64,000 nucleotides of DNA, taken from the NCBI RefSeq assembly GCF_055900595.2, contig NZ_CM148325.1; one strand, 5' to 3'. Positions within the stretch are counted from its first letter, which is position 1. The number at the start of each line of letters is the position of its first letter. Positions 16,208 through 24,940 of the stretch are shown here, piece by piece. The position numbers and the translations under genes were made by a program. Under the pieces are notes generated by a model. That model saw only the letters and a list, made by a program, of their open reading frames with translations. It did no database searches and had not been told where the DNA came from.

Positions 16208-16223
16208 TGTGAGTGATTTCACA
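16208..16223. promoter_or_regulatory. CRP-binding-site consensus TGTGA-N6-TCACA upstream of mglB
   Basis: TGTGAGTGATTTCACA read directly; mgl operon is CRP-activated. Confidence 0.7.
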
Positions 16224-20150: not shown

Positions 20151-21386
20151 TTACAACGTTACCGGGTGTTCTTTCTCTCCCTTCTTAAACTTCACTTCCC
20201 CGAGATCAATACAACCAACCGGGCAAACATGACCACAAAGCAGACAACCCACGCACTTCTCGGTATTACAATGCGGTGTGCGCGTTTTCTCGCTCCATTC
20301 CATCGCCTGGTGACCGCCGTCGTAACAGGAAATATAACAGCGTCCACAGCCAACACATTTATCGAGATTGATATGGGGATAGACGATATAGCTACGGTCT
20401 AAATCTTCCGCCGGGACAATATTGTGATTCGCCAGACCTACCATCTCCTGCAACGAATCAAATCCCTGATCGGCGAGATAATGCGATAACCCGCTCGCCA
20501 TATCTTCCACTATCCGATACCCGTACTGCATAATGCCGGTGGTCACCTGTAACGTTGCTGCGCCGAGCAATAAAAACTCCGCAGCATCTTCCCAGGTTTC
20601 AATACCGCCGATACCGCTGATCGGGAAATCGCGCAGCTCTGGATGGGTGCGCATTTGCTGAATAAAGCGTAGGGCGATCGGTTTTACCGCTTTACCGGAA
20701 TATCCGGAAATACTCGATTTACCGTTAACGATCGGCATACCAATTTTCTGATTAAGATCGATATTGGTAATGGATTTAACGGTGTTAATCGCCGCAATGC
20801 CATCTGCGCCGCCGCGTTTTGCCGCCAGCGCCACTTCGCACATATCACCGATATTTGGCGTCATCTTCGCCAGCATCGGCAGCTTAGAACCGCGTTTCAC
20901 CGCCCGACAATATTTTTCTACCAGTTCCGGGCTTTGCCCGACATCACTACCCATCGCATGAGAAGTCATTTGCGGACAGGAGAAGTTACACTCGATCATA
21001 TCGGCGCCAGCTTCTTGCACTAGCCGCGCCAGATCCTCCCACTGCTGTTCATTTTCGCCCATGATCGAAGCTATCAATACTTTGTCCGGATAATCTTCTT
21101 TCAGCCGACGCAGGGCGGCCAGATTCTCCTCCAGAGGATGTTCGGCAATCTGCTCCATATTTTTGAAGCCGATAAAACCGGTATCTTCTTTCACCAGATG
21201 ATCAAAACGTGGTGAGACTTCGTTGGCGATAAAAAAGCCGATCGTTTTAAATACCACGCCACCCCAGCCCGTGTCGTAGGCTTTGGCGCACATCTCATAG
21301 CAGTTGCCTACCGGCGAAGAAGAGAGGCAGAACGGGTTGGGAAACTTCACGCCGCAAAAGGTAATCGAAAGATCTTTCGTTAACAT
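20151..21386 (-). CDS. preA: NAD-dependent dihydropyrimidine dehydrogenase subunit PreA
   Basis: [26 protein letters not shown]...; C-terminal 4Fe-4S cysteine clusters; start taken at second Met of ORF. Confidence 0.9.
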
Positions 21387-22618
21387 GAGCAAGCTCCCTC
21401 TAAATAGTGATGAATCGCCTCGGCGGCTTCTTTCCCGGTTTTCACGGCATAAACCACGGTTTTGTCACCCTCAACAATATCGCCAGCAGCAAAGACTTGC
21501 GGGTCGCGGGTCTGGTAATTTTGTGTTTTGATGGTGTTACGCTGCGGCTCTAACTCCGCAAAGGCATCCAGTCTGGCATGCTGACCGACGGCGAGAATAA
21601 TTTTATCTGCCGCCATCGTCAGTTCGCCCGGTAAGCGTACATGCTTAAACGTGACTTTATTGCCTTCCACGGCCACTGGTGTGAATCCATCGATGATCGA
21701 AACGCCCAACTCCCGGGCGCTGGCAAACTCTTTTTCGCTTGCCGGAAACTCATCTAACTCTTCACGTGCTACGCAGGTTACCGCCTGACAGCCGAGAACT
21801 TTCAGCGTGCTGGCAACGTCCATCGCGACATCACCGCCGCCGATAATTAATGCGCTTTGTGGAATGCTGATATCGCCCTGCGCCTGCCGTGCACGTTGCA
21901 AGAAGTCGACGGCAATCTCAACGTCGCTATGCTCAAACAGCGGTAGCCCGGAACCGCCCGACAACCCTACGGTGACAAGTACTGCGCGGTTTTCCGCTTT
22001 CAGTTGCTCCAGGGTGAGTACTTTACCGATTTCGTTATTGCACTTAATGGTCACCCCCATTTTTTCGATACGGGCGATCTCTGCATCCAGCACGGTTTGC
22101 GGCAAACGAAATTGCGGAATACCGTTACACAGCCAGCCACCGGGTTGCGCTTCTTTTTCATAAATAGTGACGTCGTACCCCATATTTGTCAGCGTCACGC
22201 TGGCCTGCAATCCAGCAGGACCTGCGCCAATAATGGCGACTTTGCCGAGCGTTTTAGTACCAGGCTGATAAATTTCCATCCCGGTTTGTTGTTCAAAATC
22301 AGTGATAAAACGCTGTAAGCGACCGATATCAATGGGATCATCAACACCGGCACGGGTACAACCGCTTTGACATAATTTCTCCGTCGGGCACACTCTGGCA
22401 CAAACGGCACCGAGGGCATTATTTTCGCGAATTGTCTCGGCAGCGCCTTTAAAATTACGAAAGTAGATTGAGCGTATAAATTTCCCCGGATCGGTTTGTG
22501 CCGGGCAAGCCTGACTACAGGGCGCGTCGTGACATAATAAACAGCGAGAGGCTTCTTTAATCGCCAGTAAAGGCGTAAAAGCCGGAGTGAGTTCATCCAG
22601 ATAATTTTGTTGCGGCAT
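21380..22618 (-). CDS. preT: Dihydropyrimidine dehydrogenase subunit PreT
   Basis: 412 aa [14 protein letters not shown]...; FAD/NAD Rossmann GAGPAG; overlaps preA start (coupling). Confidence 0.9.
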
Positions 22619-22650
22619 GTGATCTTCCTTAATGCTATGAGTAATTAAGG

Positions 22651-22780
22651 CGAACGCTAAATATACTCGTCATACTTCAAGTTGCATGTGCTGCGTCTGC
22701 GTTAGCTCACCCCAGTCACTTGTCGCCTTCCTGCAACTCGAATTATTTAGAGCATAAATATTGCTTGCTGATATTAAGGC
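22651..22780. repeat. ERIC (IRU) intergenic repeat
   Basis: Contains GTCATACTTCAAGTTGCA ... GCTCACCCCAGTCACTT core recognised from ERIC consensus (reverse orientation). Confidence 0.7.
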
Positions 22781-22803
22781 TAAGCGTGTGGGGAAATTTA
22801 AAC

Positions 22804-22819
22804 TGTGAAAGCATTCACA
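22804..22819. promoter_or_regulatory. Perfect CRP half-site pair TGTGA-AAGCAT-TCACA upstream of preTA
   Basis: Read directly; about 190 bp upstream of preT start codon. Confidence 0.55.
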
Positions 22820-22904
22820 AATAGCTGCGGTTCAGAATGTTATATCCGCAGCTTATTGACTGAAGTAATAATTATTCTCAATAATTAACAGGGGAGGGAC
22901 AATA

Positions 22905-23981
<1,077 letters not shown>

Positions 23982-24013: not shown

Positions 24014-24940
<927 letters not shown>

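Follow-up and report, generated by a model that had tools for sequence, protein, structure and literature searches.

A conserved CRP site and a strain-variable ERIC element upstream of preTA in Escherichia coli

Genes and flanking structures of the yeiS-preT spacer

The window, that is, the whole 64-kb stretch of DNA analysed here, is E. coli DNA and carries on its minus strand the preTA genes and their upstream neighbours. preT (yeiT; 21380-22618), the regulated gene, encodes an NAD-dependent dihydropyrimidine dehydrogenase subunit and has preA (20151-21386) on its 3' side. Upstream of preT lies yeiS (22905-23144), a DUF2542 gene, followed by sanA (23147-23866) and cdd (24056-24940), all of them on the same strand. 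The assignments of preT, preA and yeiS rest on the open reading frames together with RefSeq annotation. Between yeiS and preT there is a spacer of 286 bp (22619-22904) that contains both a site for the cAMP receptor protein (CRP) and an ERIC element. The placement of these two features in the yeiS-preT intergenic region, proposed in a first-pass annotation of the sequence, agrees with the open reading frames and with the way RefSeq annotates E. coli DNA that is identical to that of the window or nearly so. K-12 has the same annotated gene order, as does a strain that matches the window spacer at 100% identity. In the model developed below, the spacer of the window strain would contain the preTA promoter region, the leader of which has received a mobile repeat. 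Both the CRP site and the ERIC are ordinary types of element and the overall novelty of the arrangement is low.

On the yeiS side, the spacer contains a stem-loop of the form AGCTGCGG-N15-CCGCAGCT followed by ATTTGTGAAT (22823-22853, minus strand), which is located 3' of yeiS and adjoins the CRP site. The fold of the segment 22820-22904 has a z-score of -3.1, zero shuffled sequences folding as well, and the T-rich tail of the stem-loop runs into the CRP half-site. The stem-loop is probably the terminator of sanA-yeiS, and the CRP site comes directly after this terminator-like hairpin. The terminator scanner missed it because its loop (15 nt) exceeds 8 nt. The same stem-loop is absent from Citrobacter. 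Just past the yeiS stop codon there is also an all-A/T hairpin, AATTATTG-AGA-ATAATTAT (22864-22888, minus strand). On the opposite strand, a sigma-70-like match TTGACT-18-AATAAT (10 of 12 positions; 22856-22885, plus strand) points antisense into the 3' end of yeiS, such matches being as frequent as expected from shuffled sequences.

The CRP site and the core promoter

The CRP site, TGTGAAAGCATTCACA, occupies positions 22804-22819 on the minus strand, reads TGTGAATGCTTTCACA on the preT strand and has a perfect palindromic core. TGTGA-AAGCAT-TCACA is found exactly at these coordinates, all 10 core positions matching TGTGA-N6-TCACA. The perfect core claimed in the first-pass annotation is thus an exact match, and it is statistically unexpected: two perfect cores occur in the 64-kb window versus 0.08 expected from shuffles. 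The other one, TGTGAGTGATTTCACA (16208-16223), is identical to the mglBAC activator site of RegulonDB (-41.5).

Control of preTA by CRP is already documented. RegulonDB lists CRP as an activator of yeiTA, a synonym of preTA, at -57.5 through the site TGTGAATCTTTTCACA (K-12; listed in PMC3105977 table S4). Genomic SELEX-chip experiments detected a peak, assigned the site TGTGAAAAGATTCACA, in the yeiS-yeiTA intergenic region, and yeiT was among the known CRP targets also recovered by this approach (Shimada et al. 2011, PMC3105977). In addition, b2146 appeared within the top 20 CRP predictions of PhyloScan (PMC1794230). The main text of an EAEC CRP ChIP preprint does not mention preT. The catabolite control suggested for the operon by the first-pass annotation is therefore backed by RegulonDB, SELEX-chip and PhyloScan, but it was already known; the CRP site has its entry in RegulonDB and brings no novelty of its own.

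Conservation of the site was the check named beforehand. With one genome taken per species, the core was perfect in 19/19 preT loci of Escherichia, Citrobacter and Pseudocitrobacter, with changes confined to the N6 spacer, and the same was observed in 7/7 E. coli alleles, in which the N6 spacer alone varied. The element at 22804-22819 is the catalogued yeiTA site: it sits at the same locus as the K-12 site, in the same position with respect to the two flanking genes yeiS and preT, and both sites have TGTGA and TCACA as perfect half-sites. It differs in a private spacer variant, ATGCTT in the window strain versus ATCTTT in K-12 and ATCCTT in most other strains. A further difference is that the window strain carries an ERIC between the promoter and the start codon whereas K-12 has none. 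Binding and activation by cAMP-CRP are known from the literature for the K-12 spacer variant and may extend to the ATGCTT variant.

An architecture of the CytR-CRP type (as in cdd, deoP2 and udp), in which two CRP sites about 52 bp apart flank a CytR operator, was also considered and rejected, the CRP site being single. No second CRP-like site with two or fewer mismatches was found in 22560-22975, so the preTA promoter is not of the CytR type; TGCAA/TTGCA motifs were found only inside the ERIC inverted repeats.

The first-pass annotation placed the CRP site immediately adjacent to the ERIC. This did not hold, as 47 bp separate the site from the end of the element and the core promoter would lie in this gap. 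The gap contains a conserved block, GCTTAGCCTTAA (22774-22785, minus strand), reading GC(T/A)TAGCCTTAA, whose distance to the CRP site is constant and free of gaps in 20/21 sequences from three genera. Its mean conservation is 0.94, compared to 0.71 upstream and 0.68 downstream, where the stretch also varies in length. Within this block, the hexamer TAGCCT (22777-22782, minus strand) is situated 30-35 bp from the CRP centre, which is the place expected for the -10 element of a class II promoter; it would cover -12 to -7 if CRP were centred at -41.5. TAGCCT matches TATAAT at 3/6 positions. Given its position and conservation, we infer that it may serve as the -10 element of a CRP-dependent promoter of class II. 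The block also shares GCCTTAA with the 5' arm of a hairpin located 37 bp downstream and described below, and this sharing could hint instead at a repeated protein-binding motif.

Published data give the preT leader of MG1655 a length of 44 nt, and for EHEC EDL933 two lengths are reported, 184 and 58 nt (PMC10469882 table S5, sheet 3). By alignment, the start of the 58-nt leader of E. coli O157:H7 EDL933 has its homologous position at 22769 (minus strand), 43 bp from the CRP centre, which places CRP at -42.5. The annotated K-12 start of the 44-nt leader corresponds to 22755 (minus strand), 58 bp from the CRP centre, and reproduces the RegulonDB value of -57.5; this position is the A of the TA target where the ERIC inserted. 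The two starts differ by 15 nt and both were measured in strains with an empty site; aligned to the window, they fall at or upstream of the insertion point. When these homologous positions are set against the productive CRP distances (about -41.5, -61.5, -71.5 and so on), the EHEC start gives -42.5 and the K-12 start -57.5, the latter being neither a canonical class I nor a canonical class II position. The start of the 184-nt EDL933 leader has its window equivalent at about 22895, just past the yeiS stop codon and upstream of both the terminator-like hairpin and the CRP site.

In class II CRP-dependent promoters such as galP1, CRP is described as centred at -41.5 (Busby & Ebright 1999, as cited in PMC2859248). 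The preTA promoter resembles this class in having the CRP centre 41.5-42.5 bp upstream of an EHEC-type start, a weak -10 and no recognisable -35, and departs from it in that the K-12 annotation puts CRP at -57.5. In the preferred model, the core promoter would thus reside in the 47-bp gap that separates the CRP site from the ERIC, with transcription starting near 22769 and CRP at about -41.5/-42.5. According to the K-12 annotation, the start would instead be located 15 bp further on, at the equivalent of 22755, with CRP at -57.5.

Promoter prediction did not contribute to this placement. The promoter and terminator scanner returned nothing on the preT strand and its matches did not outnumber those in shuffles. 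A PWM scan yielded weak and ambiguous sigma-70 candidates, namely TATGCT/TATACT at the ERIC terminus and TAGCAT near the start codon, and because of this ambiguity it was not used to place the start. No start near preT was found in the supplementary data searched for the Cappable-seq (PMC4782308) and SMRT-Cappable-seq (PMC6131387) studies. The distance from CRP to the ATG is 100.5-101.5 bp in Escherichia with an empty site versus 110.5-111.5 bp in most Citrobacter. It reaches 123.5 bp in Citrobacter sp. MGH106, each step amounting to about one helical turn, and the change in length lies entirely downstream of the conserved TAGCCT block.

The ERIC element and its allelic forms

The mobile repeat of the spacer is an ERIC (also IRU or RU-1), a miniature inverted-repeat element present here as a short form of 95 bp (22662-22756), as established by consensus alignment. 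The plus strand of the window corresponds to the orientation printed in PMC2759123, and the preT mRNA would carry the reverse complement. The conserved core, GCTCACCCCAGTCACTT, is found at 22705-22721. Alignment to the ERIC consensus, the check asked for in the first-pass annotation, was performed against the 127-nt E. coli consensus and the Salmonella SeRU-1 element, both taken from Delihas 2007 (PMC2759123 Table 1a). The identity reached 83/92 aligned positions in the former case and 89/95 in the latter, with a single central gap of 32 bp in each, and the alignment covered both arms and the conserved core. When the element was compared by BLAST with a full-length allelic copy, its two halves matched with E = 3e-25 and 7e-15. 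The window contains one ERIC copy, and the spacer, used as a query, has matches at a median of 5 positions in each E. coli genome, corresponding to dispersed ERIC copies.

The identification as an ERIC consequently stands, whereas the element is not full-length, since it measures 95 bp and its central 32 bp are missing. It falls short of the unit length of about 127 bp by one clean central deletion of 32 bp relative to the allele of strain E371. As the element derives from a full-length copy, the shortfall is secondary and constitutes no argument against family membership. The junction of the deletion is marked by TCACTT (22716-22721, plus strand), a sequence that the full-length element contains twice, flanking the deleted tip of the hairpin. 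The deletion is a rare secondary event between these TCACTT repeats. Shorter, internally deleted ERICs are a known class, as are longer ones carrying insertions of about 70 bp, both reportedly recognised by Wilson and Sharp in 2006.

The remaining features of the element are those of its family. When the preT strand of the ERIC is folded as RNA, its ends pair with each other in the minimum-energy structure (7 + 3 + 11 bp), with -29.7 kcal/mol and a z-score of -3.2. The empty site reads AATATT-TA-TTTAGCG, and in filled alleles a TA is present at both ends of the element, between AATATT and TTTAGCG, with a net gain of 125 bp for the 127-bp form; the insertion therefore took place at a TA dinucleotide. 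TA at both termini has been described for ERIC-type MITEs (PMC3184786). The location is intergenic, between yeiS and preT, and downstream of the published preT starts. Like other members of the ERIC family (Sharples & Lloyd 1990; Hulton et al. 1991; Wilson & Sharp 2006), the element has terminal inverted repeats forming a long hairpin, TA ends, an intergenic and probably co-transcribed location and several copies per genome, and its two arms are about 90% identical to the consensus; it differs in its length, 95 versus 127 bp, due to the absence of the central 32 bp that form the hairpin tip.

A curated RNA family was also sought and none applies, all Rfam matches being below threshold: V_AS5 reached 23.6 bits, its gathering score being 96, and CssrA gave E = 2.8, both on the ERIC arms. 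The V_AS5 family (Vibrio RNA AS5) aligns to these arms at 22666-22757 on the minus strand with E = 0.036, which suggests that this Vibrio 'antisense RNA' family was built on an ERIC-like repeat.

Alignment of spacers from representative E. coli genomes revealed four allelic states at one and the same TA dinucleotide. The empty allele, with a spacer of 193 bp, is that of K-12, O157:H7 and E2348/69. The window strain carries the short ERIC of 95 bp in its 286-bp spacer, strain E371 the full ERIC of 127 bp in a spacer of 318 bp, and strain NDM_12_14482 a long ERIC of 205 bp, with an internal insertion of 78 bp, in a spacer of 396 bp. Allele frequencies were obtained with two 48-bp junction probes, designed so that neither half alone is able to seed a match. 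The probe for the junction between the ERIC and the preT side was found in 2,187 of 5,426 complete E. coli genomes, once in each (40.3%, the site being empty in 59.7%), and the probe for the junction of the 32-bp deletion in 18 of the 5,426, also once each. The ERIC of the window is, then, a truncated and rare allele of a common polymorphic insertion. No paper describing an ERIC insertion upstream of preTA was found in the literature searched, which did not include the ERIC-locus catalogue of Wilson & Sharp 2006.

Other derivatives of the element occur in Escherichia, positioned about 60-230 bp upstream of preT. Escherichia sp. MOD1-EC7003 combines the same 32-bp deletion with the 78-bp internal insertion at the preT-upstream site, E. 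coli E69 has a degenerate ERIC remnant of 73 bp at or within a few bp of this site, and E. albertii has there, with the same tolerance, an ERIC copy of 128 bp that is 78-81% identical. Together, the diverged copy and remnant of the last two genomes show 78-82% identity. These derivatives could stem from an ancient insertion at this site or from several separate ones. The 78-bp insertion in the ERIC of E. coli NDM_12_14482 (CAAATCCGCATGGAGCGGATTTG...GGCCCATGGATGGGCC...) contains four short GC-rich hairpins and looks like a nested mobile element.

The preTA leader and possible effects of the insertion

Since neither published start maps downstream of the insertion point, the ERIC would be transcribed as part of the leader and would leave the geometry between CRP and the promoter unmoved. 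Inserted at a TA at or just downstream of the starts, the whole element would be included in a leader of about 151 nt, instead of 58 nt with the empty site, and pairing of its terminal inverted repeats would produce a long hairpin there. Closer to preT there is a second inverted repeat, CCTTAAT-N10-ATTAAGG (22627-22650, minus strand), a predicted leader hairpin that includes the preT Shine-Dalgarno sequence AAGGAAG (22624-22630) in its 3' arm. This hairpin is present in the minimum-energy fold of every allele. Its stem is invariant in Escherichia and Citrobacter, its loop varies, and a C-to-T change in Pseudocitrobacter keeps a G.U pair. No compensatory change was found among the compared sequences, so the structure is not proven, and the hairpin may act as a translational control element.

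In the modelled leaders, the ERIC folds as an independent module. For a segment comprising the leader and the initial 40 nt of preT, the minimum free energy is about -10 to -12 kcal/mol with the empty site and -43, -63 and -107 kcal/mol with the short, full and long ERIC, respectively. The predicted probability that the Shine-Dalgarno sequence is unpaired is nevertheless 0.31-0.37 in all alleles, with the start at either published site; if the start is placed 4 nt inside the ERIC, an unpublished position, the folds change and the accessibility becomes 0.43-0.59. Occlusion of the ribosome-binding site was considered as the main mechanism and discarded, since the predicted accessibility of the Shine-Dalgarno sequence is the same with and without the ERIC.

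An effect of the ERIC on mRNA structure, as the first-pass annotation had proposed, is plausible from the models because the element is located downstream of both published starts and folds into a long hairpin. We would expect any effect to be at most modest and to operate through the structured leader and the access of RNase E. ERICs of Yersinia are described as altering transcript stability through RNase E (De Gregorio 2005, as summarised in the review PMC3184786), and structured obstacles to RNase E scanning have been discussed as well (PMC9943677). According to the same review, the ERICs of Yersinia operons (De Gregorio et al. 2005, PMC3184786) are likewise transcribed and folded and could change the fate of the transcript; they lie downstream of genes and create RNase E sites that destabilise the upstream mRNA, whereas the ERIC of the window is found in a 5' leader.

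Three other readings of the locus have to be weighed. The first one is that the ERIC is selectively neutral, causing no measurable change in preTA mRNA level, translation or CRP dependence, and that its distribution reflects mobility and drift. This is a real, if minority, possibility. It is consistent with the fact that both allelic states are frequent (empty 59.7%, filled 40.3%), that a 32-bp deletion, a 78-bp insertion and degenerate remnants in other Escherichia have been tolerated, and that the Shine-Dalgarno sequence is predicted to be equally accessible with and without the element. However, a hairpin of -30 to -100 kcal/mol in the leader cannot simply be assumed to be inert, and the alteration of stability via RNase E reported for Yersinia ERICs in the review (PMC3184786) argues in the opposite direction.

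A second reading, that the ERIC rewires initiation and creates in ERIC-bearing strains new start sites, possibly independent of CRP, seems unlikely. It would require that the ERIC terminus and its flank form a better -10 (TATACT in the full element, TATGCT in that of the window) at 56-61 bp from the CRP centre, and that the distal end of the element recreates a TATATT beside the old leader. The PWM scores point this way, as TTAATA-N15/17-TATACT/TACTCT reaches 7.5-8.3, more than any candidate of the empty alleles in this part of the spacer, and the distal junction has ATGCAA-N16-TATATT with 7.0; moreover, promoter activity of bacterial MITEs has been documented for other families such as the Correia elements (PMC3184786). 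Yet these are consensus matches alone, promoter-like sites are no more frequent in the scanner output than in shuffles, and the ERIC copy of the window carries the weaker TATGCT.

Most improbable is a promoter close to preT, with a -10 TAGCAT about 15 nt before the ATG and CRP at about -93 in the empty site, from which the ERIC would move the CRP site a further 93-205 bp and so uncouple preTA from catabolite control: TAGCAT with TTAGCG or TAAACG does rank among the top PWM matches in every Escherichia allele, and the difference of about one helical turn in the CRP-to-ATG distance between Escherichia and Citrobacter fits phasing too, but such a start would drop the Shine-Dalgarno sequence from the mRNA, the published leaders are 44 and 58 nt rather than about 7 nt, RegulonDB places CRP at -57.5, and the hexamer is weaker in Citrobacter (AAGCAT).

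The complete model, comprising a CRP activator site, a core promoter in the 47-bp gap, an ERIC transcribed in the leader and a polymorphism among strains, has in our estimation a probability of about 0.7. Its possible value resides solely in the strain-variable ERIC of the preTA leader, the CRP site being already known. In E. coli, preTA has been shown to be both necessary and sufficient for inactivating 5-fluorouracil (bioRxiv 10.1101/820084), and the abundance of the operon was a predictor of fluoropyrimidine toxicity (PMC11185696). The strains employed in these two studies, MG1655 and BW25113, both have the empty site; both papers count gene presence only, and neither mentions promoters, CRP or intergenic variation. 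That the leader polymorphism (empty, 95, 127 or 205 bp) constitutes a natural expression variant, with alleles differing in preTA mRNA stability or in the use of start sites, is a rather doubtful proposition. If it were true, E. coli strains would differ in the rate at which they inactivate 5-fluorouracil and in the response of this activity to glucose and cAMP, and gene counting alone would misjudge the drug-inactivating capacity of bacteria. The four natural alleles would offer a clean test of how an ERIC acts in a 5' UTR.
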